Assembly (NCBI GenBank): GCA_965226055.1
Contig: CBDDCA010000006.1
Span: forward strand, 258,251-322,250
Origin: Spirochaetia bacterium
GTDB taxonomy: Bacteria; Spirochaetota; Spirochaetia; WTKD01; G963693115
Length of the DNA stretch: 64,000 nt
Direction of reading: 5' to 3'
Shown: in pieces, positions 1,791-55,866 of the stretch
Position numbering within the stretch: the first letter of the stretch is position 1
Layout: the number at the start of each line of letters is the position of its first letter
Program-made: the position numbers and the translations under genes
Notes under the pieces: model-generated
What the model saw: the letters and a program-made list of their open reading frames with translations, nothing else
Told to the model about the DNA's origin: nothing
The model's database searches: none

Positions 1791-4043
1791 ATGAAGTTAA
1801 ATATATTCTATTTATTTTTTATATTTCTTGTGTTTTCACTTTTTACTTGTGAAGATATAAAGGTTAATAGTAAGGAAAAAGCCACCGCACCAGCAGAGGC
1901 ACGCAGTGTTACAGCAAGCCACACCGATACAAGTATAACTATATCATGGCAAGCCCCTACCCTTACAAGCATACACACAAAAGCAAATGGAGAAAGGCTT
2001 ACAACGACAGATGTATCGTACAAAGTATACAGAGTAGCAAAAGGAAGTGATGCCCGAAGTATAGCCCAGATTAAAACAGCAGACACGAACCCGATAGCAG
2101 TAGCAAAAGGAACAACAAGCACAACTATAAGTAACCTTACTGAAAATACCACCTATGAAATAGTAGTACAATCAGTCAATGCAACAGATAGTACACAAGT
2201 CTCTACAGGCATGCGAATAGAAGTTACTACCCTTGCTACTAATCAAGCAACCGCACCAGCAGAGGCACGCAGTGTTACGGGAAGTCCTACCGATACCAGT
2301 ATAGGCATATCATGGCAAGCACCTGCCCTTACAAGCACACACAAAAAAGCAGATGGAGAAAGGCTCACAACAGCAGATGTATCGTACAAAGTATACAGAG
2401 TAGCAAAAGGAAGCAAAGCCCGCACAATAGCCCAGATTAAAACAGCAGACACAAACCCGATAGCAGTAGCAAAAGGAACAACAAGCACAACTATAAGTAA
2501 CCTTACTATAAATACTACCTATGAAATAGTAGTACAATCAGTCAATGCCACTGACCCAACAAAAATCTCTACAGGTACACTAATAGAAGTAACTACCAAT
2601 AGTCAAGCAACTGCACCAGCAGAGGCACGCAGTGTTACAGCAAACCACACCGATACCAGTACAACTATATCATGGCAACCCCCAATACTTACAAGCACAC
2701 ACAAAAAAGCAGATGGAGAAAGGCTCACAACGGCAGATGTATCGTATAAAGTATACAGAGTAGCAAAAGGAAAGAATGCCCGCACAATAGCCCAGATTAA
2801 AACAGCAGACACAAACCCAATAGCAGTTGCAAAAGGAATAACAAGCACAACTATAAGTAACCTTACTGGAAATACTCCCTATGAAATAGTAGTACAATCA
2901 GTCAATGCCACCGACCCAACAAAAACCTCTACAGGAGTACAAATAGAAATAACTACCAATAGTCAAGCAACTGCACCAGACGAGACACACAGTGTTACAG
3001 CAAGCCACACCGATACCAGTACAACTATATCATGGCAAGCCCCTACCCTTACAAGCAGTCACAAGAAAGCAGATGGAAGATGGCTCACAACAGCAGATGT
3101 ATCGTACAAAGTATACAGAGTAGCAAAAGGAAAGAATGCTCGCACAATAGCCCAAATTAAAACAGCAGACACGAACCCGATAGCAGTAGCAAAAGGAACA
3201 ACAAGCACAACTATAAGTAACCTTACTGGAAATACCACCTATGAAATAGTAGTACAATCAGTCAATGCTACCGACCCAACAAAAACCTCTACAGGAGTAC
3301 AAATAGAAATAACCACCCCAAGCCAAGCTACCATACCAGAAGAAATCCGCTTTTTAGGAAGAAGTCGAACCGATGACAGTATATCCCTATCATGGATATA
3401 TATTTATATTACTCCAGGCAAGAAAGCAACTGGACAAAAGCTTACAGCGGCAGATATATCGTATAAAATATATAGAGTAGCAAAAGGAAAGAATGCCCGC
3501 ACAGTAGCCCAGATTAAAACAGCAGACACAAACCCGATAACAGTAGCAAAAGGAATAACAAGCACAACTATAAGTAACCTTACTATAAATACTACCTATG
3601 AAATAGTAGTACAATCAGTCAATGAAACGGACACTACAAAAGTATCTACAGGAGTACGAATAGAAGCAAATACCGATAGTCAGGCAACCGCACCAGAAGA
3701 TACACAAAGTGTTGGAGTAGATACGACCACCGATGACAGTATAAGAATATCATGGGAAGCCCCTACCCTTACAAGCACACACAAAAAAGCAGATGGAGGA
3801 AGGCTCACAACAGCAGATGTATCATATAAAGTATACAGAGTAGCAAAAGGAAGGTATCCCCGCACAATAGCCCAGATTAAAACAGCAGACACGAACCCGA
3901 TAACAGTAGCAAAAGGAATAACCCACGCAACTATAAGTAACCTTAATGGAAATACTACCTATGAAATAGTAATACAATCAGTGAATGCAACGGACACTAC
4001 AAAAGTATCTACAGGAATACGATTAGAAGTAAATACCAAATAA
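1791..4043 (+). CDS. surface lipoprotein made of six tandem fibronectin-type-III-like repeats
   Basis: 750-aa ORF. The signal peptide carries a lipobox (FLVFSLFTC, Cys20). It is followed by six units of about 120 aa, each with the pattern ATAPAEARSVT..DTSxxISWQAP...YKVYRVAKG...TTYEIVVQSVNATD (the W/Y/Y-x-V FN3 pattern). An RBS-like aagagg lies upstream of the ATG. Confidence 0.9.
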   Translation: MKLNIFYLFFIFLVFSLFTCEDIKVNSKEKATAPAEARSVTASHTDTSITISWQAPTLTSIHTKANGERLTTTDVSYKVYRVAKGSDARSIAQIKTADTNPIAVAKGTTSTTISNLTENTTYEIVVQSVNATDSTQVSTGMRIEVTTLATNQATAPAEARSVTGSPTDTSIGISWQAPALTSTHKKADGERLTTADVSYKVYRVAKGSKARTIAQIKTADTNPIAVAKGTTSTTISNLTINTTYEIVVQSVNATDPTKISTGTLIEVTTNSQATAPAEARSVTANHTDTSTTISWQPPILTSTHKKADGERLTTADVSYKVYRVAKGKNARTIAQIKTADTNPIAVAKGITSTTISNLTGNTPYEIVVQSVNATDPTKTSTGVQIEITTNSQATAPDETHSVTASHTDTSTTISWQAPTLTSSHKKADGRWLTTADVSYKVYRVAKGKNARTIAQIKTADTNPIAVAKGTTSTTISNLTGNTTYEIVVQSVNATDPTKTSTGVQIEITTPSQATIPEEIRFLGRSRTDDSISLSWIYIYITPGKKATGQKLTAADISYKIYRVAKGKNARTVAQIKTADTNPITVAKGITSTTISNLTINTTYEIVVQSVNETDTTKVSTGVRIEANTDSQATAPEDTQSVGVDTTTDDSIRISWEAPTLTSTHKKADGGRLTTADVSYKVYRVAKGRYPRTIAQIKTADTNPITVAKGITHATISNLNGNTTYEIVIQSVNATDTTKVSTGIRLEVNTK
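1881..4037 (+). repeat. six tandem coding repeats with a period of about 360 bp and high DNA identity
   Basis: Repeat starts are recognisable at about 1881, 2248, 2608, 2968, 3328 and 3685, each reading gc[ac]ac[ct]gcaccagcagaggcacgcagtgttac or a variant. Unit 5 is the most diverged (WIYIYITPG replaces WQAPTLTSTH). Confidence 0.95.
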
Positions 4044-8649: not shown

Positions 8650-9642
8650 CTATTTACTTGTGTATTTTATAGAAACCCATATCCGAAACGAACTACTTTT
8701 TCCGTTATATTTACCACTTCCTTGAAAGCTAATTGTATACAATTTCTGTAATAGCTTCCCTTTTGCTTTACCACTTATTGTACCAGAGCTAGTATCAAAA
8801 CCTAATCCTGTCTCATCGTTAATATCAGGAGAAATAGCATAGCGACCAGATATATCACTGGGATTTGCATCAAAACTCACCGATATATCAGTATCTTTGT
8901 CAGCAATAGCCATAATGAACGGTAAGCCATTATACGGTTCTATGGTAACAGCATCATTCCCGCTTGGAGTAAATACATAGCTCCAGCCAGGAAGTTTTAC
9001 ACTCGTAACACCTGAATTATCAAATATACCTTCTACTCTAATAGTATCTTGTATATCCCATTCCTCTAAATCATGCTTAAACCCAGTGGCTCCCTTAAAC
9101 ATATTAATCATATTATTGATAGTATTGTTTACTTTCCACGTTGATATATCTTGATTAAACTGTGTCGCTCCTGCAAACATACTGTTCATATTTTTCACTT
9201 TCTCTACTTTCCACACTGATATGTCTTGATCAAACTGTGTTGCTCCTGCAAACATACCACTCATATCGGTAACATTACTGACATTCCAGCTTGATATATC
9301 TCCATTAAAATGAGTATTTCCCTTAAACATATTGCTCATATCGGTAACATTACTGACATTCCAGCTCGATATATCTCCATTAAAATTAGCTAAATCTCCA
9401 TCACTACTAAATAAACCACTCAAATCTGTCATATTACTTATATCTATATTTGAGAGATCTGTTTCCCATCCATGAAATGAAACTTCACGTTTTATATTAT
9501 TAGCTAGTACTTGTTTATCCGATGGATGATAGACAAAAGACAAGTCTGTAGATTCCTGACTACAACTAAAAAGCAGTAGCAATCCCATTCCTATCATCCA
9601 TAGAAAATAATACTTATATGCTTGAGCATTACATTGTCTCAT
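8650..9642 (-). CDS. BspA-family / DUF285 leucine-rich-repeat lipoprotein, single-module paralogue of the giant gene's first module
   Basis: 330 aa. The lipobox is LLLFSCSQ. It contains 23-aa repeats of the form FNGDISSWNVSNVTDMSNMFKG.T., then GLGFDTSSGTISG (putative-Ig/He_PIG-like motif). It is collinear with residues about 25-340 of the 10605..19073 product. Confidence 0.85.
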   Translation of the reverse strand: MRQCNAQAYKYYFLWMIGMGLLLLFSCSQESTDLSFVYHPSDKQVLANNIKREVSFHGWETDLSNIDISNMTDLSGLFSSDGDLANFNGDISSWNVSNVTDMSNMFKGNTHFNGDISSWNVSNVTDMSGMFAGATQFDQDISVWKVEKVKNMNSMFAGATQFNQDISTWKVNNTINNMINMFKGATGFKHDLEEWDIQDTIRVEGIFDNSGVTSVKLPGWSYVFTPSGNDAVTIEPYNGLPFIMAIADKDTDISVSFDANPSDISGRYAISPDINDETGLGFDTSSGTISGKAKGKLLQKLYTISFQGSGKYNGKSSSFRIWVSIKYTSK

Positions 9643-10604: not shown

Positions 10605-13600
10605 CTAGCGACAATTCCCCGCTGGAAGACACCATCCAGGCAAGTTTTTTACAGCTGTACCCTTAAACATATCTGTTTTTATCACACTGTTTGCTACATT
10701 CCAGTTACTCAAATTCTGATTAAAAACACTAGCATCAGCAAACATACTGCTCATATCGGTAACATTACTTACATTCCAATTCCCTATATCTTGATTAAAA
10801 ACATCAGCATCATAAAACATATACCTCATATTGGCAACATTACTTACATTCCAATTCCCTATATCCTGATTAAAAGCTTCAGCATCATAAAACATACTGT
10901 TCATATTGGTAACTTTACCTACATTCCATTTTGATATATCTCCATTGAAAAATTCTGTTTGATTAAACATATTGCTCATATCGGTAACTTTACTTACATT
11001 CCATAACGATACATCTCCATTAAAGTATTGTTTATCATAAAATAGCCCTCCCATGTCTGTTATGTTACTTGTATCTATCATGTTTAAGTTAGGGGCAAAT
11101 CCTTGTGCTTTTATCTCTGCTTCTATGGCTTCCTCTAACTTTTTTTTGTTTTGAGGAGTGTACTTGTATTCTATCGTAACTGATATTGTTTTTGATCTAC
11201 TGGCATCAGTATATGTATGTATTGCTTTCCCATCGCTCTTTTTACTGGTAAACTCTATAGTATAGGTCTTTGAAGCTGCTTTGGTAGGAGTACCTGATAT
11301 CTTCCCAGTATCAGCATCAAAGCTCAACCCTGTATCTGCTGTTATATCCGGACTTATACTAAAAATTCCTGCTATAGCGGGTGTTTTAGTAAGTGTTACT
11401 TCTTTATCTTTCGTTAATGGTACTCCTACATATGCCTTTACACTACCTCCTATACTAGCTCTACTTGCACTTATATTAAAATACCATGTAGGGAGTATTA
11501 CTACAGCTGTATGCTCAAACATATTTGTTTTACTCACAGTTTTATCCACATTCCATGTTTCAAGTTCTTTATTAAATACACTTGCTCCCTTAAACATATT
11601 GCTCATATCGGTAACTTTACTGACATTCCACCCTGTTATATCTTGATTAAACTTACTTGCATTAATAAACATACTACGCATATCGGTAACTTTACTGACA
11701 TTCCACCCTGTTATATCTTGATTAAACTCACTTGCCTTAAAAAACATACTGCTCATATTGGTAACGCTACTGACATTCCATCTTGATATATTTCCATTAA
11801 AATTAACTTCACTGGAAAATAGACTACTCATATCTTTTATTTTACTTGTATCTATCATAGTGAGATCGGGGGTATTTCCTTGTACAGTTATCTCTGTATT
11901 TATAGCCTGCTGTAATTCTGCTTTATTATTAGGAATATGCTTATACTCTTTAATAGTAACTAACACTTTTATAGTCCGCCTATCATCAATATATTTATGT
12001 ATGAGTGTTTTATCAGCCTCTTCACTTCTAAACTGTATGGTATACTCAGTCTGTGAAGTTACTGTGGTGGGAGTACCTGATATTATGCCAGTACTAGTAT
12101 CAAAGTTCAACCCTGTATTTGTTGTTATATTTGGACTTATACTAAAACTCCCTGTTATAACGGGCGTTTTGGTAAGTATTATTTTTTGACTGTCTAGGAG
12201 TGATAAATCTCTATAGACACTTATAGTAGTACTATTTGCACTTATACTAAAATACCATGTAGGCAACTTTTTTACTGCTGAAGCAAGAAACATATCTGTT
12301 TTTGTCACACCGCTATCTACATTCCAACTTTCAAGATCTTGGTTAAATGCATTTGCGTTATTAAACATAAAAAACATATTCGTAACACTACTGACATTCC
12401 AATTTGATATATCCCCATTAAATTTTTGTGCTCCTGCAAATATACTGCTCATATTGGTAACTTTACTTACATCCCATTTCGATACATTTCCATTAAAATG
12501 ATCTTTACTGGAAAATATATTACTCATATCTGTTATAGCACTCGTATCTATTATGTTTAGATTAGCGGTATTTCCTTGTGCATTTATCTCATCATCTACA
12601 GCCTTCTGTAATTCTGTTTTATCACTGGGCGTATACTTATACTGACTTATAGTTACATGTATCTCTATTGTCCGATCAGTATATGTATGTATTGTTTTCC
12701 CATTCTTTTCACTGGTAAACTGTATAGTATACTTAGTTTGTGAAGCTAATATAGTGGGAGTACCCGATATTGAGCCAGTGTTAGTATCAAAGTTCAACCC
12801 TGTATTTGTTGTTATATTTGGACTTATACTAAAACTCCCTGTTACATTAGACGTTTTAGTGAGTGTTATTGTTTCAGTGTTACTTAGCGATAAATCTTTG
12901 TATCCAGTTATAGTAGTTCTGTTTGCATTTATACTAAAATACCATGTAGGCAACTTCTTTACTACTGTACTTTCAAACATATTTGTTTTTATTACACTGC
13001 TTTTTACATTCCAGTTTTCCAGATTTGCACTAAACTTTGATGCAAAATTGAACATAGTTTCCATATTTGTAACTTTACTTACAGTCCAATTTTTTATATC
13101 TTGGTTAAAGCTTTGTGCAGATAGAAACATAGCTCTCATATTTATAACTTTACTTACAGTCCAATTTTTTATATCTTGGTTAAAGGCATGTGCTCCAGCA
13201 AATAAACTCTCCATATTTGTAACAGCACTTACATTCCATCCTGATATATCTCCATTAAATTTATTCGCATTCAAAAACATATTGCTCATATTTGTAACTT
13301 TACTTACATTCCATTTTGATATATCTCCATTGAAATTAGCTTTATCCTCAAATAGATTACTCATATCTGTTATAACACTTGTGTCTATTATGTTGAGATT
13401 AGCAGTATCTCCTTGTGCAGCTATCTCATCATCTACAGCTTTCTGTAACTCTGTTTTATTACTAGGAGTATGCTTATAACTTGTGGTAACTGATATTTTT
13501 ATTGTTCTATCAGTATATTTATGTGTCGCTGGATTACCTTTACTATCAGTAAAGCTACTGGTAAACTCTATAGTATAATCAGTCTTTGAAGCTGCTTTAG

Positions 13601-16600
13601 TAGGAGTTCCTGATATTGTGCCAGTGCTAGTATTAAAATCTAACCCTGTATTTACTGTTATATCTGGACTTATACTAAAACTTCCTGTTATATCAGGCGT
13701 TTTGGTAAAAGTTATTTCTTTATTTTTTGCAAGTGGAACATTTACATATGTATTTATACTACGATTACTTGCACTTATATTAAAATACCATGTAGGCAAC
13801 TTTGCTACTGCGGTATTCTTAAACATATCTGTTTTTGTCACACCACTTGCTACATTCCAGCTTTCAAGATCTTTTTCAAATGCATTTGCTCCACTGAGCA
13901 TACTACTCATATTGGTGACAGCATTTACATCCCATTCGGATATATCTCCATTGAAAGTAATATTATCCTTAAATAGATCACTCATATCTGTTATTTTACT
14001 TGTATCTATTATGTTGAGATTAGCTTCGTTTCCTTGTACATTTATCTCTGTAGTTATAGCTTGCTTTAATTCTGTTTTATTATTAGGAGTATGCTTATAC
14101 CTACGTATCTCTACCGATATTTTTATTGTCCTATCAGTATCAATATATTTATGTATTACTGTTCCATCTGTCTTTTTACTTGTAAACTGTATGGTATATT
14201 CAGTCTTTGAGATTGCTGTAAGAGGAGTACCCGATATTTTACCAGTGCTAGGATCAAAATCTAAACCTGTATTTTTTGCTATATCTGGACTAACGCTAAA
14301 ACTTCCTGTTATATTAGGTGTTTTGGTAAGGGTTATTTCTTTATCTGTTGCTAATGGTATGTTTTTATATGCAATTATCTTATTATCACTTGCACTTATG
14401 CTAAAATACCATGTAGGCAACTTTGCTACTGCGGTATTCTTAAATATATCTGTTTTTGTCACAGTCCCATCGCTTGCTACATTCCAATCTTCCAGATCTT
14501 GGTTAAATTTTGTCGCTCCCAAGAACATCTTGCCTATATCGGTAACGCTACTTATATTCCAGCTTGATATATCTTGATTAAACGCTGCCGCTGACGAAAA
14601 CATCTGATGCATATTCGTAACTTTTCCTACCTTCCAATTTGATATATCTTTATTAAAAATGGTTGCTCCCGAAAACATAGCTGTCATATTTGTAACTTTT
14701 CTTACATCCCAGCCCGACATATTGCTATTAAAATTTGCTGCTCCTAAAAACATTCGATTCATATCCGTAACTGCCCCTACATTCCACCCCGATATATCTT
14801 TATTGAAACTGGTTGCTCCCGAAAACATATTCCCCATATCATTCACATTTTGTACCTTCCAATTTGATATATCTTGATTAAAACTTGTCGCATTCCAAAA
14901 CATACCATTCATGTTAGTAACACTTTGTACCTTCCAGTTTGATATATCTTGATTAAAACTACCTGCATAATAAAACATACTGCTCATATCAATAACATTA
15001 CTTACATTCCAACCAGAAATATCCCCATTAAATGCAGCAGCTTGATTAAACATATGACTCATATCAGTAACATTACTTACATCCCACTCAGATATTTTAC
15101 CATTAAAAGTAGTATTACTATTAAATAATCCACTCATATCATCAATCTTACTAGTATCAATTATATTTAAGTCAGCAGTATTTCCTTGTAATCCTATCTC
15201 AGTATTTATATTGTTTATTAATTCTAATTTACCAGTAGGAGTATACTTATGCCCTATAGTAACTGTTATCGTTATTGTCCTATCAGTATAGGCATATATT
15301 GTTTTCCCATTCTTTTCACTGGTAAACTGTATGGTGTAAGGAGTTTTTGAAGCTACCTTTGTAGGAGTACCCGATATTGTCCCAGAGCTAGAATCAAAAC
15401 TCAAGCCTGTATTTGTTGTGATACTTGGACTTATACTAAAACTTCCTGCTATACTAGGTGTTTTGGTAACTTTTATTTCTTCACTTGCTCCTAATTTTAT
15501 ACGTGCTTGCCCTGTCAGAGCAGACTTATTTGCACTTATACTAAAATACCATGTAGGTAACTTTGCTACTGCGGTATTCTTAAACATATCTGTTTTTGTC
15601 ACAGTCCCATCGCTTGCCACCTTCCAGCTTTCAAGATCTTTGTCAAATGCACTTGCTCCTAAAAACATGCTACTCATATCAGCAACCTTGCTTACATTCC
15701 ATCCCGATACATTTTGATTGAAACTTGTTGCTCCTGAAAACATATTACTCATATCGGTAACGCTACTTACATCCCATCCCGATATATCTCCATTGAAATT
15801 AGCTTTATTCTCAAATATATTACTCATATCTGTTATATTACTTGTATTTATTATGTTTAAGTTAGCAGTATTTCCTTGTACTTCTATCTCCTTTTTTATG
15901 TTTTCCAATAACTCTGTTTTGTTGTTAGGAGTATAAAGATAAGTATTTATTGCTACTGATAGAGTGATGGATCTAGTATCGACATAAGTATATGTCGCTG
16001 GATTACCTGAGCTATCAGTAAAGCTACTGGTAAACTGTATGGTGTAAGAAGTTTGTGAAGCTGCCTCGGTAGGAGTACCCGATATTGTGCCAGTTCTAGT
16101 ATCAAAATCTAACCCTGTATTTGCTTTGATATCTGGACTTATACTGAAACTTCCTGCTATAAGGGGTGTCCTTGTCAGTATTATATCTGTTATTGGTACT
16201 TTTACTCCCTCATGTATACTATTGCTGCTTGCGCTTATACTAAAATACCATGTAGGTAATTTTGCTACTGCAGTATTCGTAAACATATTTGTTTTTGTCT
16301 TAAGGCTTGCTATATTCCAGTTTTCAATATCTCCATTAAATTTTATCGCCCCACTCAACATATTTTCCATATCAGTGACTTTACTTACATTCCACTCGGA
16401 TATATTTCCATTGAAAGTAGTGTTATCCTTAAATAGATCACTCATATCTGTTATGTTACTTGTATCTATTATGTTGAGATTAGCAGTATTTCCTTGTGCA
16501 TTTATCTCTGTAGTTATAGCTTGCTTTAATTCTGCTATATTATTGGGAGTATGCTTATATTTATGTATCTCTACTGATATTGTTATTGTTCTATCAGTAT

Positions 16601-19073
16601 AGGTATGTGTTGCTAAAGCACCTGTACTACCAGTAAAGCTACTGGTAAACTGTATGGTGTAAGAAGTTTGTGAAACTGCTTTGGTAGGAGTGCCTGATAT
16701 TGTCCCAGTGCTAGTATTAAAACTCAACCCTGTATTTGCTGTTATATCTGGACTAATACTAAAATTTCCTGCTATATCAGGCGTTTTGCTAAGGGTTATT
16801 TCTTCATTTTTTGCTAGCGGTATTCCTCTATATACATCTATACTAGCACTATTTGACTTTATGCTAAAATACCATGTAGGTAATTTTGCTACTGCGGTAT
16901 TCTTAAATATATCTGTTTTTGTCACAGCGATTGCTACATTCCAGCCTTCAAGATCTTGTGTAAACTTAGAAGCACCAGAAAACATGCTACTCATATTGGT
17001 AACCTTGCTTACATTCCATCCCGACACATTTTGATTGAAACTTGTTGCTCCTAAAAACATACTGCTCATATCGGCAACTTTACTTACATTCCATCCCGAT
17101 ACATTTTGATTGAAACTTGTTGCTCCTAAAAACATACTGCTCATATCGGTAACTTTACTTACATTCCATTTCGATATGTCTCCATTAAAACTTGTTGCTC
17201 CTGAAAACATACTGCTCATATCGGTAACTTTACTTACATTCCATTTCGATATATCTCCATTGAAAGTAGTGTTATCCTTAAATAGCCTACTCATATCTGT
17301 TATAAGACTCGTATTTATTATGTTTAGATTAGCAGTATTTCCTTGCAATCCTACCTCTGTTTTTATAGCTTCCAATAATTCTGCTTTATTTTTTGGCTTA
17401 TACTCTATAGTGAGCAATATTTCTATTGTCCTATCAGTATCAGTATAGGTATGTATTTCTGTCCTATCAGAGGAGGTACTTGTAAATGTTATAATATACT
17501 CAGTCTCTGAGGCTACCTTTGTAGGAGTACCTGATATTGTGCCAGTACTAGTATCAAAACTCAACCCTATACTCGTTATATCTGGCTTTATACCAAATTT
17601 TCCTGTTATATCAGGCGTTTTGCTAAGAGTTATTTTTTCATTATCTGCTAGTGATACCCCTTTATATACAGTGAGCTCATCAACATTAGCACTTATGCTA
17701 AAATACCATGTAGGCAATTTTGCTACTGCGGTATTTGTAAACATATCTTTTTTTGTCACAGTGCTTGCTACATTCCAGCCTTCAAGATCTTTATCAAATG
17801 CACTTGCTCCTGAAAACATACCATCCATATCTGTAATATTACTTACCTTCCACTTTGATATGTCTCCATTGAAACTTGTTGCTCCTGCAAACATATTACT
17901 CATATCGGTAACATTGCTTACATCCCACAATGATATATCTCTATTAAAGGTAGTGTCATCCTTAAATAGATCATGCATATCTTTTACAGCACTTGTATTT
18001 ATATAGTTAAAATTATCTACATCAGTATTTTTAATTGCTTCTATTAATTCGTTACGTGTTTTTACTATAGCAGTAAACACCGATACATATATAGAGAACT
18101 GGCTAGACTTTCCTAAGTAACTTCCATCCCCTGTAAAACGAATTGTATATTTTCTTCGTATACCATTTTCTTTATCCTTCAATAACCTTATTGCAGTGCC
18201 ATATATTTCTCCATTATTGTCCTTCATCTCCAATCCTGTATCTTCCGTAAGAGTTGTCGTTTTTCCATCAGTACTATTAAATTCAATACTCCATGTACCA
18301 GTAATTCCTGGAGGGCTTGTTGCAATATTGATTGGCATTAAAGGAACATTCAAGCTCGACTTGATTAACTGTTCATTATCATACCTATCTGTGATAGAGT
18401 TTCCATCACGCACAAGAGTAAATACATAATGCCAACTAGGAATACTTGTTGCAGGTACATTAGCTCCCTTAAATATATCTTGTATATTTACTGAATCTGC
18501 TACCTGCCATTTCTCTAAATCATACTGAAACACTGTTGCTTTATTAAACATGTTACTCATATCGGTAACCTTGCTCACATTCCAGCCTGATATATCTTGA
18601 TTAAAACTTGCTGCGGCTTCAAACATGTTACTCATATCGGTAACCTTGCTCACATTCCAGCCTGATATATTTTGATTAAAACTCGTTGCTCCCTTAAACA
18701 GATTACTCATATTAGTAACATTACTTACATTCCAGCCTGATATATTTCCATTAAAGGTAGTATTTCCTTCAAACATACTGCTCATATCAGTAATATTGCT
18801 TACATCCCAACTTGATATATCACCTGAAAAATTGGAAAATTCACCATCACCTTTGAATAAGCCGCTTATATCTTTTACTTTACTTGTATCTATAGTAGAG
18901 AGATCTGCTGCATTTCCGCGGGAGGCAATTTCTCGCTTAATGTTTTCAATAAGCGATTCTCTACTATCAGGAGAGTAAATAAAGTCTAAACTTAAAGATT
19001 TTTCTGGATCACAACCAGATACCAAAAAAGCGAAACATAAAAATAGCCAAAATATAAAAAATTGATACTTCAT
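10605..19073 (-). CDS. giant modular surface lipoprotein: 11 modules of DUF285/BspA LRR blocks, most followed by a putative-Ig (He_PIG-like) domain
   Basis: 2822-aa uninterrupted ORF. The lipobox is FLVSGCDP. There are eleven module starts of the type GNTANLNIIDTS.ITDMS.LF. Each is followed by 3-11 copies of the 23-aa unit F(N)xDIS.WNVS.VT.M..MF..A..F, then AVAKLPTWYFSISA and GLSFDTSTGTISGTPT. The last module ends with LPGWCLPAGNCR. Confidence 0.9.
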   Translation of the reverse strand: MKYQFFIFWLFLCFAFLVSGCDPEKSLSLDFIYSPDSRESLIENIKREIASRGNAADLSTIDTSKVKDISGLFKGDGEFSNFSGDISSWDVSNITDMSSMFEGNTTFNGNISGWNVSNVTNMSNLFKGATSFNQNISGWNVSKVTDMSNMFEAAASFNQDISGWNVSKVTDMSNMFNKATVFQYDLEKWQVADSVNIQDIFKGANVPATSIPSWHYVFTLVRDGNSITDRYDNEQLIKSSLNVPLMPINIATSPPGITGTWSIEFNSTDGKTTTLTEDTGLEMKDNNGEIYGTAIRLLKDKENGIRRKYTIRFTGDGSYLGKSSQFSIYVSVFTAIVKTRNELIEAIKNTDVDNFNYINTSAVKDMHDLFKDDTTFNRDISLWDVSNVTDMSNMFAGATSFNGDISKWKVSNITDMDGMFSGASAFDKDLEGWNVASTVTKKDMFTNTAVAKLPTWYFSISANVDELTVYKGVSLADNEKITLSKTPDITGKFGIKPDITSIGLSFDTSTGTISGTPTKVASETEYIITFTSTSSDRTEIHTYTDTDRTIEILLTIEYKPKNKAELLEAIKTEVGLQGNTANLNIINTSLITDMSRLFKDNTTFNGDISKWNVSKVTDMSSMFSGATSFNGDISKWNVSKVTDMSSMFLGATSFNQNVSGWNVSKVADMSSMFLGATSFNQNVSGWNVSKVTNMSSMFSGASKFTQDLEGWNVAIAVTKTDIFKNTAVAKLPTWYFSIKSNSASIDVYRGIPLAKNEEITLSKTPDIAGNFSISPDITANTGLSFNTSTGTISGTPTKAVSQTSYTIQFTSSFTGSTGALATHTYTDRTITISVEIHKYKHTPNNIAELKQAITTEINAQGNTANLNIIDTSNITDMSDLFKDNTTFNGNISEWNVSKVTDMENMLSGAIKFNGDIENWNIASLKTKTNMFTNTAVAKLPTWYFSISASSNSIHEGVKVPITDIILTRTPLIAGSFSISPDIKANTGLDFDTRTGTISGTPTEAASQTSYTIQFTSSFTDSSGNPATYTYVDTRSITLSVAINTYLYTPNNKTELLENIKKEIEVQGNTANLNIINTSNITDMSNIFENKANFNGDISGWDVSSVTDMSNMFSGATSFNQNVSGWNVSKVADMSSMFLGASAFDKDLESWKVASDGTVTKTDMFKNTAVAKLPTWYFSISANKSALTGQARIKLGASEEIKVTKTPSIAGSFSISPSITTNTGLSFDSSSGTISGTPTKVASKTPYTIQFTSEKNGKTIYAYTDRTITITVTIGHKYTPTGKLELINNINTEIGLQGNTADLNIIDTSKIDDMSGLFNSNTTFNGKISEWDVSNVTDMSHMFNQAAAFNGDISGWNVSNVIDMSSMFYYAGSFNQDISNWKVQSVTNMNGMFWNATSFNQDISNWKVQNVNDMGNMFSGATSFNKDISGWNVGAVTDMNRMFLGAANFNSNMSGWDVRKVTNMTAMFSGATIFNKDISNWKVGKVTNMHQMFSSAAAFNQDISSWNISSVTDIGKMFLGATKFNQDLEDWNVASDGTVTKTDIFKNTAVAKLPTWYFSISASDNKIIAYKNIPLATDKEITLTKTPNITGSFSVSPDIAKNTGLDFDPSTGKISGTPLTAISKTEYTIQFTSKKTDGTVIHKYIDTDRTIKISVEIRRYKHTPNNKTELKQAITTEINVQGNEANLNIIDTSKITDMSDLFKDNITFNGDISEWDVNAVTNMSSMLSGANAFEKDLESWNVASGVTKTDMFKNTAVAKLPTWYFNISASNRSINTYVNVPLAKNKEITFTKTPDITGSFSISPDITVNTGLDFNTSTGTISGTPTKAASKTDYTIEFTSSFTDSKGNPATHKYTDRTIKISVTTSYKHTPSNKTELQKAVDDEIAAQGDTANLNIIDTSVITDMSNLFEDKANFNGDISKWNVSKVTNMSNMFLNANKFNGDISGWNVSAVTNMESLFAGAHAFNQDIKNWTVSKVINMRAMFLSAQSFNQDIKNWTVSKVTNMETMFNFASKFSANLENWNVKSSVIKTNMFESTVVKKLPTWYFSINANRTTITGYKDLSLSNTETITLTKTSNVTGSFSISPNITTNTGLNFDTNTGSISGTPTILASQTKYTIQFTSEKNGKTIHTYTDRTIEIHVTISQYKYTPSDKTELQKAVDDEINAQGNTANLNIIDTSAITDMSNIFSSKDHFNGNVSKWDVSKVTNMSSIFAGAQKFNGDISNWNVSSVTNMFFMFNNANAFNQDLESWNVDSGVTKTDMFLASAVKKLPTWYFSISANSTTISVYRDLSLLDSQKIILTKTPVITGSFSISPNITTNTGLNFDTSTGIISGTPTTVTSQTEYTIQFRSEEADKTLIHKYIDDRRTIKVLVTIKEYKHIPNNKAELQQAINTEITVQGNTPDLTMIDTSKIKDMSSLFSSEVNFNGNISRWNVSSVTNMSSMFFKASEFNQDITGWNVSKVTDMRSMFINASKFNQDITGWNVSKVTDMSNMFKGASVFNKELETWNVDKTVSKTNMFEHTAVVILPTWYFNISASRASIGGSVKAYVGVPLTKDKEVTLTKTPAIAGIFSISPDITADTGLSFDADTGKISGTPTKAASKTYTIEFTSKKSDGKAIHTYTDASRSKTISVTIEYKYTPQNKKKLEEAIEAEIKAQGFAPNLNMIDTSNITDMGGLFYDKQYFNGDVSLWNVSKVTDMSNMFNQTEFFNGDISKWNVGKVTNMNSMFYDAEAFNQDIGNWNVSNVANMRYMFYDADVFNQDIGNWNVSNVTDMSSMFADASVFNQNLSNWNVANSVIKTDMFKGTAVKNLPGWCLPAGNCR

Positions 19074-19219
19074 ATAAATATATTCAATAATACGTACAAA
19101 AAAATAAATTTACTTAATATAAATTTAGTACATTTATACGATTTTTCAACCTCTTATGTACATAATATATATTACTATATTTTATTGTCAATAATATCAT
19201 TTTCCAATACTCCCAATAT

Positions 19220-19675
19220 TTATTTCTTACGTTTTGCTCGCGTACTCTTGGGTGTATTCTTCTGTTGTGTATCATTCTCATCATTCACCATGATAGTATT
19301 AAAATTGATAGGAGGCAGTAGTATTGGGGAAATGCCAGATTTTGCTGTTAATGAAGAAATATATTCTCTTACATAAGGAAAAAGAACAGCAGGAGCATCT
19401 TTTTTTGAAAATTCTTTCAATAATGCTATATTTGGTTCTTCTGCATCTTCTTGAAACTGTCCTGCACAAATAATTTCAATATGTAACGAGTTTTCTTCAT
19501 TTTGAATTGTAACCTTTAGTTCTACATATAGCATATTATTATCTTCATCTATTGAAGATTTTGCTTCCATCTGCGGATCAATTTCAGATGATTGTATAGT
19601 AGCAGCTCTCTGGAATACTACATGAGGAAATATAATAGAATGTATTCTAATACCAAGTGATTTATTTTTTTGCAT
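19220..19675 (-). CDS. secB: protein-export chaperone SecB-like
   Basis: 151 aa. DAPAVLFPYVREYISSLTAKSGISPILLPPINF matches the conserved SecB C-terminal core (E. coli [32 protein letters not shown], from memory). It has a basic C-terminal tail. Confidence 0.7.
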   Translation of the reverse strand: MQKNKSLGIRIHSIIFPHVVFQRAATIQSSEIDPQMEAKSSIDEDNNMLYVELKVTIQNEENSLHIEIICAGQFQEDAEEPNIALLKEFSKKDAPAVLFPYVREYISSLTAKSGISPILLPPINFNTIMVNDENDTQQKNTPKSTRAKRKK

Positions 19676-19760: not shown

Positions 19761-22331
19761 TTATAACTTTATAGTGAGAAAAAAACTAATTTCTAGCTGA
19801 CGTAGCCATTTGCTCGGACTAAAAGTGTATTCAATTTTTCTATTTGAAGGATCCTTATTACTTGAACCTGCTGTTTCTTTATCTTTTATTTCTTTGTCAT
19901 CTATTTGAAACCAAGCAAGAAAATCTCCTAAACTAAATCGGTATCCTAACACAACATTTTTATTATCAAGGAATTTGCCCGAGAAGGCAGGGACTAAACT
20001 CCATATTGGAGCATAACTACGTGCAGAATTGATCTCTGTTGTATCAAATCCTGTCCGAGGGTACACTGTAAGAGGAAACTCTGGTGATGGATGTTTTTCA
20101 TATACAGTGGGAGTAAATGGAGTATCTATAGTGTATACATTGGTGAGAGAAAAATTAAACGCGGGGTTTACTTTGTACAAATAGCTTAATTTAATGGTGT
20201 GCCGATAATCATTAGAGGCAGGAAGCCATATATCATCCTTTGTCTTAAAATATACAAACCCCAATGTGTATGAAATATCTAATATATGAAAATCGGTGGT
20301 ATACTGATAACGAAATGTTGCTCCTGTACCAAATCCATGTTTTACAGGTAAATACGAAAAGCCTCTTATGTTTGAGTTTGCATAGTCAGGATCTGAAAAA
20401 TCGGGAACGACATTATATTTGTATTGACTAAATATACCTTCAAAACCATAATACCATCCAAAGTAGGGAGATACAGAGAGCTGATGATCGCCAAGCTGTA
20501 TAAGATATTTCGCAAAAGACATTGTTCCATAGCTTGGATTGGTAAATGTTGTTTCATCGTACTGGTACTTAATAGTTTTTTCTAAAATTTTTCTATTGAC
20601 ATATTGTAATTCTTCTAAAAATGCAGGACTCCATCCTGTAAACAGGGAGAGTACATGTATATCGCTAAATGTTAGTGCATAGTCTGCTCGTACAGAAGGA
20701 TACACTTTGCTAGGGTCTTGTGCTATCCAAGATATGCCAGGACTTACAGAAAATGACATTTCTCCTCTATCGTATAGTTCCTCATAATCGTATTGGAAAA
20801 ATGCATAGGCTTTAAGATAGTCTTCGTTAATGGTGTACTTTGGCAGAGCAGCTTCTTTGTCTGTTTTATTCTCAGAATCGTTTGGATCTATATAATAAAA
20901 TATATCTTCGTAATTTGATCTTAAGGTAACATAGTCCACTATTGATCCTATGCTCATAACAACATTATCAAAAAACGACTGTGAATAGATATTTTTTATT
21001 CCTGTATTCCATACATTTGAATTTCCTTTATAGTAATATCCTGTATTATACAGTTCTTGATCGAGTTCTATAATGTTTCTACGCGTTTCTCCTATATTTT
21101 TTCTTCTAAATTCTGAATTAACATTTGCTACATAATAATAACTATAGATATCAAGCTCATTAAATGCACTTGCTCCAATTAATTTTGACCATTGTAGTCC
21201 TCCTCCAACAAAATAAGGGAAATTTTTAGATTCTAAAGTTACATCTTCATTTGAGGCACTTACATCAATAGTATCATAATACGCAAGCGTTAATAGTTTT
21301 ATTCTGTCTGCCCCTTTTGTGTATTCTAATGATAAAAAGAGATCTCCATATAAATAGCGCTCTATGTTTGTTTGTGTTTCTCCTGCAGATTCCGCAATTA
21401 ATTGTATAAGAGGAAACAGCGTATATTGAGAAATAGACTGCTTTGCCATAGTAAATAATGTTGTATGTTCATTTAAGTTAGTACGATAACTCAAAAAAGG
21501 ATCAGTAATGCCTACCCCTATATCTAATTGATGAGATGTTACTGTTTCGGGATACACAACAGTGGTTCCTCCAAGTGATTGTCCGTACCGTCCTGGAGGG
21601 GGACCTTTTAGTGTTTTTACTGAGCTAATTGATTCTTTTGAGAGTATTGGCTTTGTATTATCTGATAAATGAGTGTTTGAAGGAATGGGCAAAAAATCAA
21701 TATATGCTTGATTCCATGCAGAGTCTCCTCCAAATACCGAGAATAAAGAACCATAAGAAAAAAAGGTGCCATTTTGTGGATCAATTAAAAAAGGAGAAGT
21801 AGCATTTTCTTTTTCATTTATAAATACCCCTGCTTCTGTAGTGATAATATTAAATGGATCATTGTCTACTACAGGGAGATTGTCTATAAATTCAGCGTCA
21901 TACTCCTCTTTGTTCGGTTCAATTTGTATCTTTCTTTCTGCGGTAACAATAATCTCTTGTTCAAATTCTTCACTTATATCATCTAGTACAAATAGATACG
22001 GATCACGCTCCGAAGAAGAGACTGTTCCTATTTCAATGGTATAATCAAATTCTTTTTCCTCTATTGTGATGATCTTTACTGTATAGATTCCTGCATCAAT
22101 ATCTTTGAATACAAAGTTGCCTTCTGTATCACTCACTTCAATAGCGTCCAGTTCTATAATAATGATCGTTACATCAGAGAGAGATGCGTCATTTGATGAT
22201 GTACTGGAAACTACTTTTCCATAAAAATCTATTGCAAATACTGGCACACAAAGAAACAGAAACAAAATAGACACTATATACGGTTTCATAAAAATACCCC
22301 TTAGTATTATATATACTATATCATAATACAC
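19761..22331 (-). CDS. outer-membrane beta-barrel protein with an N-terminal carboxypeptidase-regulatory-like domain (TonB-dependent-receptor-like)
   Basis: 856 aa. The likely true start is Met15 (MKPYIVSILFLFLCVPVFA, ATG at 22289). GKVVSS...VSDTEGNFVFKDIDAGIYTVKI is a CarboxypepD_reg-type fold. EIIVTAERK and TLKGPPPGRYGQSLGG are plug-like. The rest is long, aromatic-rich and looks like beta strands. Confidence 0.55.
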   Translation of the reverse strand: MYYDIVYIILRGIFMKPYIVSILFLFLCVPVFAIDFYGKVVSSTSSNDASLSDVTIIIIELDAIEVSDTEGNFVFKDIDAGIYTVKIITIEEKEFDYTIEIGTVSSSERDPYLFVLDDISEEFEQEIIVTAERKIQIEPNKEEYDAEFIDNLPVVDNDPFNIITTEAGVFINEKENATSPFLIDPQNGTFFSYGSLFSVFGGDSAWNQAYIDFLPIPSNTHLSDNTKPILSKESISSVKTLKGPPPGRYGQSLGGTTVVYPETVTSHQLDIGVGITDPFLSYRTNLNEHTTLFTMAKQSISQYTLFPLIQLIAESAGETQTNIERYLYGDLFLSLEYTKGADRIKLLTLAYYDTIDVSASNEDVTLESKNFPYFVGGGLQWSKLIGASAFNELDIYSYYYVANVNSEFRRKNIGETRRNIIELDQELYNTGYYYKGNSNVWNTGIKNIYSQSFFDNVVMSIGSIVDYVTLRSNYEDIFYYIDPNDSENKTDKEAALPKYTINEDYLKAYAFFQYDYEELYDRGEMSFSVSPGISWIAQDPSKVYPSVRADYALTFSDIHVLSLFTGWSPAFLEELQYVNRKILEKTIKYQYDETTFTNPSYGTMSFAKYLIQLGDHQLSVSPYFGWYYGFEGIFSQYKYNVVPDFSDPDYANSNIRGFSYLPVKHGFGTGATFRYQYTTDFHILDISYTLGFVYFKTKDDIWLPASNDYRHTIKLSYLYKVNPAFNFSLTNVYTIDTPFTPTVYEKHPSPEFPLTVYPRTGFDTTEINSARSYAPIWSLVPAFSGKFLDNKNVVLGYRFSLGDFLAWFQIDDKEIKDKETAGSSNKDPSNRKIEYTFSPSKWLRQLEISFFLTIKL

Positions 22332-37179: not shown

Positions 37180-38484
37180 CTAAGGAATAATGTTACTTAC
37201 AAGATAGTCTCTATTATACATGATAACTCTACCCAACTTATACTCTCTCCATTTCACAAGAATAGGTTGAGGAACAATATTCTTTTCTTGCTCCAACTGT
37301 GTTACAGTGAACATCGTACTATCATATATAGTAGCTATTTCTAAACGCTCTTTGAGCATTGTTACTAAATTACCATCAACAGACCATAATTTTATTCTTG
37401 CATCCTTTCCTGCACTTGCAATACTATTGCTCTTTCCATTAAAAGCAACTGTCCATATACGATCATTATTATCCTTAATACTTCGTTCTAAAGTAGCATT
37501 TTTTACATTCCATATATTTATACTCTCATCAGCACTACTACTAATAATATACTTTGAATCAGCACTAAACCCAACAGCATATATATTTGAAGCATGTCCT
37601 TTTAGTACACGACTTGCTCGCAGTCCTTCTTTAGACGACTTTGCCTGTGCTAAGTCATCCAACGAGTATACTATTATCGTACAATCATCACTAGCACTTG
37701 CAAGATATTTTCCATCTGCACTAAACGCCAACGCATTGACATCTCCGTAATGTCTTCTAAAGCTCTGTAAAGCAGTTATGTTTCTGTCTTGCTTTGCCAT
37801 TTCTGTATTAAAAGGAACATTCCAAAATCGTACAATATTATCTGTACCACCACTTGCAAGATATGTTCCGTCAGAACTATATGCTATAACATGTATCTCC
37901 TGTTGTGTCTGTAGCTCATCTATAAGCTGTGCATTCTCTACATCCCATATACGAATACTTCCATCTTTTCCCGCACTTGCAAGAGTATTTTCACTAGGAT
38001 GAAATGCTATAGTATACCCCTCGTTCTGTGAGATAGTATGATTTTGTGACTTATCCTGAAATTGAGCTTGAATTTGAGTAAGGATATTCCCTTTATTTGT
38101 TAGATCCCAAATAGTAATAGTACCATCAACACTCACACTTGCTACCAACGTTCCACTAGGACTATATAGTACTTGAGAAATAGCAGAGCTATGTCCTTCT
38201 AAACTACGAATAATCTGATAACTGTTTAGGTCCCATAGTTTGACTGTATTATCTTTTGATCCACTCACAAGAAAATTACCACTAGGAGAAAATGCAATGC
38301 TAACAACATCATCACTATGAATGGGCTGTGGCTCTAACCTTTCTAAGCCTACTTGTTGCATAAAATCAAGGGCTGACCCCTTCGCTACTTCCTGCTCTTC
38401 CTTATATGATGTACAGCTTGTTGCTACCAAGAGAACATAAAAAAAAGAGATTATAAATATACACTGTAATAATTGCTGTTTCAT
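37180..38484 (-). CDS. WD40-repeat lipoprotein (seven-bladed propeller predicted)
   Basis: 434 aa. The lipobox is LLVATSCTS. There are seven units of the type FSPSGNFLVSGSKDNTVKLWDL. Confidence 0.85.
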   Translation of the reverse strand: MKQQLLQCIFIISFFYVLLVATSCTSYKEEQEVAKGSALDFMQQVGLERLEPQPIHSDDVVSIAFSPSGNFLVSGSKDNTVKLWDLNSYQIIRSLEGHSSAISQVLYSPSGTLVASVSVDGTITIWDLTNKGNILTQIQAQFQDKSQNHTISQNEGYTIAFHPSENTLASAGKDGSIRIWDVENAQLIDELQTQQEIHVIAYSSDGTYLASGGTDNIVRFWNVPFNTEMAKQDRNITALQSFRRHYGDVNALAFSADGKYLASASDDCTIIVYSLDDLAQAKSSKEGLRASRVLKGHASNIYAVGFSADSKYIISSSADESINIWNVKNATLERSIKDNNDRIWTVAFNGKSNSIASAGKDARIKLWSVDGNLVTMLKERLEIATIYDSTMFTVTQLEQEKNIVPQPILVKWREYKLGRVIMYNRDYLVSNIIP

Positions 38485-54783: not shown

Positions 54784-55866
54784 CACGAGTTCAAGGATTA
54801 AATGCGACAAAGGAGCAAAAAAAGTAAGAAAAAATAAAAAAAGGAGACACTCTATAATTGTATAAACGAAACAAATTAGGAGGTCTCCTTTATGAGTATA
54901 CCAAAAAACTCATTTCGTCATCTGACAGAGAAAGATCGTACTATTATCGCTACGCTCCGTCATGCAAAGTACAGTGTCAATGCTATAGCCAAACGCCTCA
55001 GTGTCCATCGCAGCACTGTCTATCGTGAAATACAACGCAATGGGGGCAAACGTGTCTATAATGAAGTCATTGCTCACAGACGGGCAAGAAAACGATGGGA
55101 ACAGAGTCATACAAAACACTCTGTTCTTTCTCATACTATTCGTACCTATATCGTTTTTCACCTTATTTTCGATGGCTGGTCGCCCGAACAAATAGCAGGA
55201 AGGCTCAGTATTGATATGCCTCAGTATGCTATCAGTCATGAGACGATATATCACTTTATTTACCGTTTCGCTCCTCATTTGACACAGTATCTGCGAAAAC
55301 AGCACCAAACACGCAAAAAAAGAACCATATCTCACTCTTTTTCTGTTTCTCGTATCCCTCATCGTGTCTCAGTACACGAACGAGGCGATGTTTCTAATGA
55401 ATATGGCCACTGGGAAGTAGATCTTGTTGGCTCTTCTTCAAAAGCTACTGTGCTTGCTTTAGTGGAAAAACATACCCGTTATGTTCTTTTTCATAAGATA
55501 CCTGACAAAACTGCTCATACCGTACAGTATGGCATGCTCTTTGCTCTAAGGAACATACCACGCCATTTATGTAACAGTTTCACTTATGATAATGGGAGTG
55601 AATTTATGCTCCATACTGAAATAAATACACGCTTGAATGCTCGTTCTTATTTTTGTACTCCTTACTGTGCTTGGGAAAAAGGATTAGTCGAACATTCTAT
55701 TGGATTATTACGTCAGTACTTTCCTAAGAAGACTTTGTTTCATAGAGTCAAGCAAAGTGATATACTACAAGTACAAACGCTTATCAATCATAGACCACGA
55801 AAATGTCTTCATTTTTTGACCCCTGCTGAAGCCTTTTCTGTCGCATTTAGTCCTTGAATCCGCACT
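54784..55866 (+). mobile_element. intact IS30-family insertion sequence, about 1.08 kb
   Basis: The IRL is cacgagttcaaggattaaatgcgacaaaggagc. The reverse complement of the right end (55833-55866) is gtgcggattcaaggactaaatgcgacagaaaagg, sharing the core TTCAAGGAyTAAATGCGACA. There is a single transposase ORF inside. The exact termini are uncertain by a few nt. Confidence 0.85.
54892..55857 (+). CDS. IS30-family DDE transposase
   Basis: 321 aa. The N-terminal HTH reads LTEKDRTIIATLRHAKYSVNAIAKRLSVHRSTVYREIQRN. GHWEVDLV, TYDNGSEF and EHSIGLLRQYFPK are the D, D and E blocks typical of IS30 transposases. An RBS aggagg lies 8 nt upstream. Confidence 0.92.
   Translation: MSIPKNSFRHLTEKDRTIIATLRHAKYSVNAIAKRLSVHRSTVYREIQRNGGKRVYNEVIAHRRARKRWEQSHTKHSVLSHTIRTYIVFHLIFDGWSPEQIAGRLSIDMPQYAISHETIYHFIYRFAPHLTQYLRKQHQTRKKRTISHSFSVSRIPHRVSVHERGDVSNEYGHWEVDLVGSSSKATVLALVEKHTRYVLFHKIPDKTAHTVQYGMLFALRNIPRHLCNSFTYDNGSEFMLHTEINTRLNARSYFCTPYCAWEKGLVEHSIGLLRQYFPKKTLFHRVKQSDILQVQTLINHRPRKCLHFLTPAEAFSVAFSP

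Follow-up and report, generated by a model that had tools for sequence, protein, structure and literature searches.

The giant gene and its modules

The 64,000-nucleotide (nt) stretch analysed here (the window; positions 258,251 to 322,250 of contig CBDDCA010000006.1, assembly GCA_965226055.1, Spirochaetia bacterium) carries on its minus strand a single uninterrupted open reading frame (ORF), 10605..19073, which encodes a predicted lipoprotein of 2822 amino acids (aa), hereafter the giant. An earlier account made from the letters of the DNA alone (the sequence-only reading) had reported this ORF, its length and its lipobox correctly, without stating the strand. It had described the product as eleven iterations of one module, consisting of leucine-rich repeat (LRR) units and an immunoglobulin-like (Ig-like) domain. 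A protein search returned an identical database protein, P0001, encoded on a 957-kb contig. The features of the giant are as follows; for two modules the ratio of nonsynonymous to synonymous divergence (dN/dS, ω) from the orthologue in a sister strain is given.

10605..19073, minus strand: giant lipoprotein gene, 2822 aa, 11 modules, 57 LRR units of 25 aa, ATG start
19164..19191, minus strand: sigma-70-like promoter match TTGACA-16-TATATT, 11/12 positions (consensus scan, pattern match only)
19011..19073, minus strand: signal peptide with lipobox L-V-S-G-C, Cys21 being the predicted lipidation site (from the translation)
18096..19010, minus strand: module 1, mature part, 6 units and a divergent Ig-like domain, collinear with a 330-aa paralogue
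17412..18095, minus strand: module 2, 4 units and Ig-like domain
16563..17411, minus strand: module 3, 6 units and Ig-like domain, with the most alike adjacent units; chosen for modelling
15945..16562, minus strand: module 4, 3 units and Ig-like domain
15255..15944, minus strand: module 5, 4 units and Ig-like domain, ω 0.91
14103..15254, minus strand: module 6, 10 units and Ig-like domain
13482..14102, minus strand: module 7, 3 units and Ig-like domain
12645..13481, minus strand: module 8, 6 units and Ig-like domain
11949..12644, minus strand: module 9, 4 units and Ig-like domain
11172..11948, minus strand: module 10, 5 units and Ig-like domain, ω 1.16
10608..11171, minus strand: module 11, 6 units, without Ig-like domain, ending in LPGWCLPAGNCR

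The translation opens with MKYQFFIFWLFLCFAFLVSGC, laid out as MK-YQFFIFWLFLCFAFL-VSG-C21, and has the N-terminus of a Sec/signal peptidase II (SPII) lipoprotein with the lipobox VSGC; the orthologue has the same. This lipobox was called by eye and with the regular expression [LVI][ASTVI][GAS]C within the first ~30 residues. The promoter-like match sits in the 146-nt gap that separates the giant from a SecB-like gene. At its other end the giant finishes with the same residues in both strains, including two cysteines five residues apart (10608..10650, minus strand). A different conserved tail, (I/V)PDWAGG(S/T)YTGP, closes the other family giants, and we know neither tail as a sorting signal.

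Searches against Pfam assigned the giant to DUF285 (PF03382; E=0, 1553 bits, 18 stretches) and He_PIG (putative Ig, PF05345; E 2.5e-38, 8 stretches), and nothing else was found at E<=0.01, including any carbohydrate-binding module. The NCBIfam PARCEL repeat TIGR02167 matched in 20 stretches (1.9e-132). NF045896 (Mbov_0838 family) gave 1056 bits against a curated cut-off of 500; this sum comes from 17 partial stretches spanning profile positions ~235-381 of 433, so that the repeat is matched and the whole protein is not. The GC content of the giant (0.333, compared with 0.347 for the window) also matches that of the genome. No transposase or integrase gene was found beside it, and an Rfam search of the window returned no RNA family.

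All eleven LRR blocks were recovered, and the motifs quoted by the sequence-only reading (NLNIIDTS, LPTWYF and G.ISGTP) occur in nine of them each. The modules are less uniform than that reading supposed, as an Ig-like domain follows only blocks 1-10, with a divergent copy in module 1 and none in module 11. The repeat unit, given there as 23 aa or 69 bp, measures 25 aa or 75 nt (Tandem Repeats Finder period 75 and register analysis). Blocks hold 6, 4, 6, 3, 4, 10, 3, 6, 4, 5 and 6 units with N-cap and C-cap counted, that is 3-10 rather than about 3 to 11.

Internal similarity of the giant is real and far above chance, and the description of its DNA units as nearly identical fits only a handful of them. 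Mean identity over all unit pairs is 56% at the nt level, and whole modules are 60-89% (nt) and 32-72% (aa) identical to each other. The pairs singled out earlier are indeed close: adjacent units of module 3 (17031-17105, 17106-17180 and 17181-17255) are 92-93% nt identical, and adjacent units of module 8 share a 41-nt exact repeat (13070-13110 and 13145-13185). Exact direct repeats of 41-50 nt at 75-nt spacing between adjacent units occur in modules 1, 3, 8 and 10, the 50-nt copy being that of module 10. The longest exact repeat within the gene, 63 nt, is shared by modules 8 (12782-12844) and 9 (12095-12157).

Across 35 internal units, W5 and F23 are invariant and I2, V7, V10, M13, M16, F17 and A20 are present in 83-97%. 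Positions 4, 6, 9, 12, 14, 15, 18, 19, 21 and 22 are variable, with entropy above 2 bits at 4, 14, 15, 18, 19, 21 and 22. The giant thus has tandem 25-residue repeats matching the family hidden Markov models (HMMs), with periodic hydrophobic conservation and variable hydrophilic positions in between, as is characteristic of PARCEL/DUF285 proteins.

Two ORFs of 241 and 319 aa (12754..13479 and 13618..14577, plus strand) lie opposite the giant. The longest stop-free antisense run is 332 codons, compared with 207 +/- 50 in codon-shuffled controls (95th percentile 295), and the antisense ORFs are mostly a by-product of codon composition. Opposite-strand ORFs of PARCEL genes are mentioned in PMC2996958.

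Divergence between two strains

An orthologue of the giant (P0002, 2860 aa, 11 modules, intact ORF) is present in a sister strain, OZ244590.1, deposited as 'MAG: Spirochaetia bacterium' (MAG, metagenome-assembled genome), chromosome 1, a circular contig of 2,360,799 bp at 14x. The syntenic order comprises a sugar-uptake cluster, an 846/856-aa outer-membrane-like protein, the SecB-like gene, the giant, an 11-mer-repeat protein, a small DUF285 paralogue and a ribose-type ABC transporter. Between the strains, identity in the flanks is 96-97% for DNA and 97-99% for proteins. From ~19100 down to ~8550 nt identity drops to 81-92%, and the giant and its orthologue share 78.5% aa identity. Substitution rates estimated by the Nei-Gojobori method for the giant, the small paralogue and ten flanking genes were as follows.

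Giant: dN 0.130, dS 0.208, ω 0.63
Ten flanking genes: dN 0.0025-0.0155, dS 0.088-0.19, ω 0.02-0.14
Small paralogue (8650..9642): dN 0.110, dS 0.163, ω 0.68, 78.5% aa identity to its orthologue

Nonsynonymous change in the giant is therefore 10-50-fold above that in neighbouring genes. This is the strongest signal at the locus, and it had gone unnoticed in the sequence-only reading. Since dS differs little from that of neighbouring genes, nonsynonymous change accounts for most of the extra divergence, which does not reflect import of an old allele. Single modules reach ω 0.91 (module 5) and 1.16 (module 10). Alignment columns were then classed as conserved or variable according to how much the window strain's paralogous modules differ there, and ω was calculated between the strains with bootstrap intervals (in brackets).

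LRR: ω 0.20 in conserved columns, 1.42 (0.80-2.65) in variable columns
Ig-like domain: ω 0.16 in conserved columns, 1.49 (1.05-2.50) in variable columns
Linker: ω 0.54 in conserved columns, 1.84 (0.94-3.51) in variable columns

This split shows that the fold is kept while exposed positions change at or above the neutral rate. Scaffold columns have ω 0.16-0.20 at dS 0.16-0.23. At the level of single units, positions 4, 6, 9, 12 and 18 differ in 37-44% of orthologous unit pairs, and W5, S8, V10, M13, M16, F17, A20 and F23 differ in <=7% of them.

The sequence-only reading had proposed comparing module number among strains, and both strains proved to have eleven. Modules correspond one to one (aa identity 71-85% for positional pairs and 32-72% for all others), which indicates that the 11-module build is older than the strain split and that no wholesale homogenisation has taken place. 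Unit number differs in two modules. Module 6 has 10 units in the window strain and 6 in the sister strain, where units 5-8 (14574-14873, exactly 300 nt) are absent, and module 11 has 6 units and 9 units, respectively. All strain indels in the giant are in frame, in register and multiples of 75 nt. Gain and loss of units, which the sequence-only reading had anticipated, is thus borne out by changes of four units (module 6) and three units (module 11), but gives no support to a fast switch, with only two of 11 modules differing in unit number between strains 3-4% apart.

Exchange of segments between modules is also supported. Several 90-nt intervals match a second module of their own strain at 90-95% identity and the positional orthologue at only 67-83%; sister-strain module 6 against sister-strain module 3 is one case. 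Furthermore, the loop of the Ig-like domain exists as two cassettes, a long form SSFTDSSGNPATH and a short form SKKTDGT--VIH, and the type is switched at four of nine module positions. Short patches have apparently been copied between modules of the giant.

Additional alleles were sought by scanning metagenomes and genome contigs. A metagenome scan with module 1 retrieved 80 loci, all of them DUF285 proteins 36-53% identical and from unrelated organisms. A metagenome scan anchored on the SecB-like protein retrieved no further alleles of the giant locus, and a genome-contig scan anchored on the 856-aa protein upstream retrieved the sister strain only. The evidence on strain variation therefore comes from two genomes.

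Predicted fold of the module

The structure of a single module, a prediction that the sequence-only reading had recommended, was modelled for module 3 with AlphaFold2 (AF2) at high confidence (predicted local distance difference test, pLDDT, 90.1; predicted template modelling score, pTM, 0.79). The model has a helix (residues 9-23), then a solenoid, and a beta-sandwich (residues 183-282). Foldseek matches to it were confined to the C-terminal ~110 residues and comprised Ig, cadherin and Rib domains only, and a sequence search of the Protein Data Bank (PDB) found no solved DUF285 relative. In a two-module model (modules 4-5) the domain folds are kept and pTM falls to 0.49, so the prediction leaves the arrangement of neighbouring modules unfixed. 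As modelled, each module resembles an internalin (cap, LRR and Ig-like domain), and eleven of them would follow one another in the protein.

A family of giants

A protein search with the giant yielded 3268 matches at E<=1e-20, and the best 120 of these are all 1800-4900 aa long. Many of those 120 are named 'BspA family leucine-rich repeat surface protein' and belong to Bacteroidota, archaea or the alga Bathycoccus. The size of the giant is thus ordinary for the DUF285 family. Together with the several further giants in the same genomes, this contradicts the earlier opinion that a protein of such size and regularity is unusual. Identity to the giant is below 40% outside the two strains.

The sequence-only reading had also recognised a three-member family. 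Its members are as described within the window, where no further DUF285 gene was found in the 64 kb, and the genome carries more giants of the same build. The two smaller members are as follows.

8650..9642, minus strand: single-module paralogue, 330 aa, lipobox LFSC
60200..60906, plus strand: DUF285 block at the C-terminus of a 1571-aa protein rich in fibronectin type III (fn3) domains (ORF 56191..60906), a distant family member

The 330-aa paralogue is collinear with module 1 including the signal peptide (41% identity over 326 aa, E 2e-84), and the C-terminus of the 1571-aa protein consists of a linker and a DUF285 block with 37% identity; both relationships had been noted before. An IS30-like transposase gene (HTH_38 and rve; 54892..55857, plus strand) lies immediately upstream of the 1571-aa protein, whose fn3 part has a GC content of 0.44, compared with 0.35 for the window. 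The giant P0010 of the sister strain adjoins another protein with fn3 and DUF285 (1839 aa), and an HTH_38 fragment lies close by.

Giants of exactly the same build are present in the window strain, the sister strain and two related genomes. A lipobox was found in 13/13 giants examined, with about 7-11 iterations of linker, DUF285 and He_PIG; these counts are based on the N-cap motif, which misses divergent first modules. In the 2.36-Mb sister genome, seven giants have a combined length of 16,846 aa and take up about 50.5 kb, roughly 2.1% of its chromosome. The giants (at least seven) are dispersed, at 0.17, 0.56, 1.05 and 1.92 Mb of the sister chromosome, and do not share neighbours. At least seven paralogues of 1800-2900 aa are likewise intact. 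Other pairs of the family also outpace housekeeping genes in divergence (P0015 and P0010 are 90% identical; the best match of P0022 is 72-78%).

Other genes of the window

Several neighbouring genes are themselves repetitive or restricted in distribution.

1791..4043, plus strand: 750-aa ORF with six 360-nt (120-aa) tandem repeats of 84% identity
9931..10536, minus strand: 201-aa protein between the giant and the small paralogue, with ~13 tandem 11-residue repeats
19220..19675, minus strand: SecB-like gene, directly upstream of the giant in both strains
19761..22331, minus strand: 856-aa protein with a weak CarboxypepD_reg-like N-terminal match and no further family match
37180..38484, minus strand: 434-aa protein with strong matches to the eukaryote-type WD40 beta-propeller (WD40, 5.6e-64)

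In the 201-aa protein, repeats of ENLTTEINSVR (33-nt period, 12 copies, 86% matches) are followed by a C-terminal transmembrane helix, a build that we take to recall the Bdr (Borrelia direct repeat) proteins. Its only Pfam matches are weak ones of coiled-coil type, and as its counterpart in the sister strain has 226 aa, repeat number differs here as well. The 750-aa ORF has a high GC content (0.40) and a strong AT skew; its syntenic counterpart in the sister strain has 1111 aa and weak fn3 matches, and repeat copy number probably differs between the strains (about 6 and 9).

The SecB-like gene matches Pfam SecB (2.2e-12), yet falls far under the NCBIfam equivalog cut-offs. From its position its product might be a dedicated export chaperone for the giant. 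It was not found beside other giants of the family. A conserved operon of the SecB-like gene, the giant and the sugar transporter was considered and rejected, as paralogous giants have unrelated neighbours. The 856-aa protein, 98% identical between the strains, is lineage-specific, with a single relative found among genomes of 185,579 species, and may be an outer-membrane protein. With its WD40, fn3 and LRR proteins, the window is rich in 'eukaryote-like' repeat proteins.

Function and alternative explanations

The giant is probably a lipid-anchored, rapidly diversifying, multivalent binding protein, belonging to a lineage-specific family of this uncultured Spirochaetia bacterium. Judging from the lipobox, it would be exported and then lipidated at Cys21. 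The high-confidence model predicts that it folds into a chain of 11 internalin-like modules, each made of a short helical cap, a DUF285/PARCEL solenoid with 3-10 coils of 25 residues and, in modules 1-10, a He_PIG Ig-like domain. The joints between modules are predicted to be unfixed, and from typical domain sizes a fully extended chain may reach tens of nanometres. The solenoids would keep their hydrophobic scaffold and display variable polar positions, and the giant most likely serves to bind ligands outside the cell, such as host, particle or other cell surfaces, in a multivalent manner. Both this role, drawn from the fold and from work on DUF285 proteins of Mycoplasma and Lactococcus, and exposure at the surface are inferences. 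L. lactis IBB477 adheres less when a DUF285 and Big_3 protein is deleted (PMC5071367), beta-actin is bound by MbovP0145, a DUF285 lipoprotein of M. bovis (PMC8707762), and PARCEL lipoproteins of the M. mycoides cluster are surface proteins that are both expressed and variable (PMC2996958).

Several points weigh against this interpretation. The residue at +2 after the lipidated Cys is Asp in the giant, and the paralogues are acidic at +2/+3. Asp at +2 favours inner-membrane retention in E. coli, and spirochaete sorting rules differ, so surface exposure of the giant is not established. The alignment behind the predicted fold is shallow, comprising 18 modules, paralogues and orthologues alike. 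The evolutionary analysis compares two sequences only, in which, among the variable columns, just those of the Ig-like domain have ω significantly above 1, the intervals for the LRR and linker including 1; moreover, conversion between modules inflates both dN and dS and can mimic positive selection.

The high dN/dS might instead reflect a dispensable, decaying gene under no selection for diversity. An overall ω of 0.63, below 1, and the two bootstrap intervals that include 1 would be in line with relaxed constraint. We nevertheless regard it as unlikely, because the 8.5-kb ORF is intact in both strains with all indels in frame, the scaffold columns are under clear purifying selection and the paralogues of similar size have stayed intact too. 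High-frequency switching of size or antigenic type by slippage or conversion, as in vlsE of Borrelia and tprK of Treponema pallidum, would find suitable substrates in the 41-50-nt direct repeats and the 63-nt repeat of modules 8 and 9. The in-register indels, the patchy conversion between modules, the switched loop cassettes and the spirochaete host also agree with it. Such programmed variation is nonetheless improbable, given that units are on average only 56% identical, that unit number differs in only two of 11 modules at 3-4% genome divergence, and that neither a promoterless donor-cassette array nor a simple-sequence tract was found in or beside the giant in the 64-kb window. Module order is conserved and modules are orthologous one to one, so the changes look slow and evolutionary. 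A bolder version, to which we give little credence, is that the giant and its family form a self-templated diversification system, producing mosaic surface variants by frequent segmental conversion and unit slippage. The donors would be modules of the same gene, perhaps together with the 330-aa paralogue and six or more other giants. If true, vlsE and tprK would be joined by a third conversion-based variation system of independent origin in spirochaetes, this one built on an LRR scaffold.

The giant has a ribose-type ABC transporter on one side and SBP_bac_8, GH4 and permease genes clustered on the other, and upstream of it lies a predicted outer-membrane protein with a CarboxypepD_reg-like N-terminus. 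This position might point to a surface glycan binder serving the adjoining sugar-uptake genes, as in the polysaccharide-utilisation loci of Bacteroidota. This is very unlikely, since the giants at 0.17, 0.56 and 1.05 Mb lie amid unrelated genes without sugar-uptake neighbours, the giant has its own promoter-like site, and Pfam detects no carbohydrate-binding module in it. Collapsed or expanded repeats could in principle have falsified the unit count or module order, as the gene is repetitive and comes from a metagenome-assembled genome, and the sequence-only reading had itself raised mis-assembly and frameshifts as a concern. Of all the explanations considered, we give such an artefact hardly any weight: nt identity between modules is no more than 60-89%, any current read exceeds the longest exact repeat in length, strain differences are clean in-register unit indels, and the independent circular sister assembly, whose name format we take to be that of a long-read metagenome assembler, has the same 11 modules in the same order and an intact ORF.

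These findings do not overturn current views, and they are as expected for a family of surface binders or antigens. Few uncharacterised surface repeats of bacteria, marine algae and giant viruses are as common as DUF285/PARCEL repeats, and we know of only a few functional studies of such proteins. While the family itself is known and very common, the tandem iteration of cap, LRR and He_PIG and the pattern of divergence between the two strains deserve mention. The locus provides a natural experiment, in which strains 96-97% identical around the giant have a protein diverged by 21% with every module in place. This contrast separates scaffold positions from freely varying ones in both the repeat and the Ig-like domain. 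To it are added evidence for exchange of unit number and loop cassettes within the giant, a confidently predicted internalin-like fold for the module, and an uncultured spirochaete that devotes about 2% of its 2.36-Mb genome to such giants.

Comparison with known systems

The sequence-only reading had linked the giant to BspA and the adhesins of oral pathogens. BspA of Tannerella forsythia and LrrA of Treponema denticola are LRR surface proteins, and NCBI names DUF285 proteins 'BspA family'. Both have 23-residue LRR_5-type repeats (PF13306), and BspA also has Big_2 domains and, as an adhesin or invasin, binds fibronectin or fibrinogen. In the giant the period is 25 residues, and LRR_5 and Big_2 are unmatched in Pfam (E<=0.01). 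As Pfam finds only DUF285 and He_PIG, the link to BspA is nominal. The automatically annotated giant 'BspA family' proteins of Bacteroidota, marine algae and metagenomes are likewise large, 1800-4900 aa long, with several DUF285 tracts among Ig-like domains. Most of them have PKD, fn3 or cadherin-like spacers and a C-terminal domain of the type IX secretion system (T9SS) (PF18911, PF00801, PF18962), whereas the spirochaete lineage has He_PIG spacers, a helical cap before each tract and a lipid anchor.

Both vlsE (Borrelia) and tprK (Treponema pallidum) are spirochaete surface-protein genes altered by segmental conversion; the giant, a putative surface-protein gene of a spirochaete, has conversion patches between its modules in the strain comparison. 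There is no sequence relationship, and the donors differ: a silent cassette array for vlsE and tprK, modules of the same gene in the giant, with no silent donor-cassette array found in the 64-kb window.

The PARCEL/DUF285 lipoproteins of Mollicutes (LppQ, LppC, the Mbov_0838 family and MbovP0145) share with the giant the 25-residue unit (PF03382, TIGR02167, NF045896), the lipoprotein signal, the hydrophobic periodicity and the variable polar positions. Their repeat number varies among related strains (PMC2996958), as in the giant. They have one tract in a few hundred residues, and the giant has 11 tracts, 10 of them with an Ig-like domain. The PARCEL/DUF285 unit was described in 2010 (PMC2996958), where spirochaetes are not mentioned. 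The 'palindromic' property of PARCEL repeats was considered for the giant and ruled out: in a dyad-symmetry test, which differs from the MEME palindrome mode used in PMC2996958, the consensus 75-nt unit had 32/75 reverse-complement matches at the best circular shift, no better than shuffled controls (34.5 +/- 2.4). Association with mobile elements and horizontal transfer, found for PARCEL genes in some taxa, is not apparent either, as the giant has no mobile-element neighbour and the GC content of its genome.

By predicted fold, the modules resemble the internalins of Listeria (InlA, InlB, InlH and InlF), with which they appear to share the three-part arrangement of cap, LRR and Ig-like domain. 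The likeness is of fold only, with no Pfam LRR_4, LRR_8 or LRR_adjacent match in the giant. The repeat has 22 residues in internalins and 25 in the giant, and anchoring is by LPXTG or GW in the former and by a predicted N-terminal lipid in the latter. Finally, an internalin has a single cap-LRR-Ig unit, whereas the giant has eleven in tandem.

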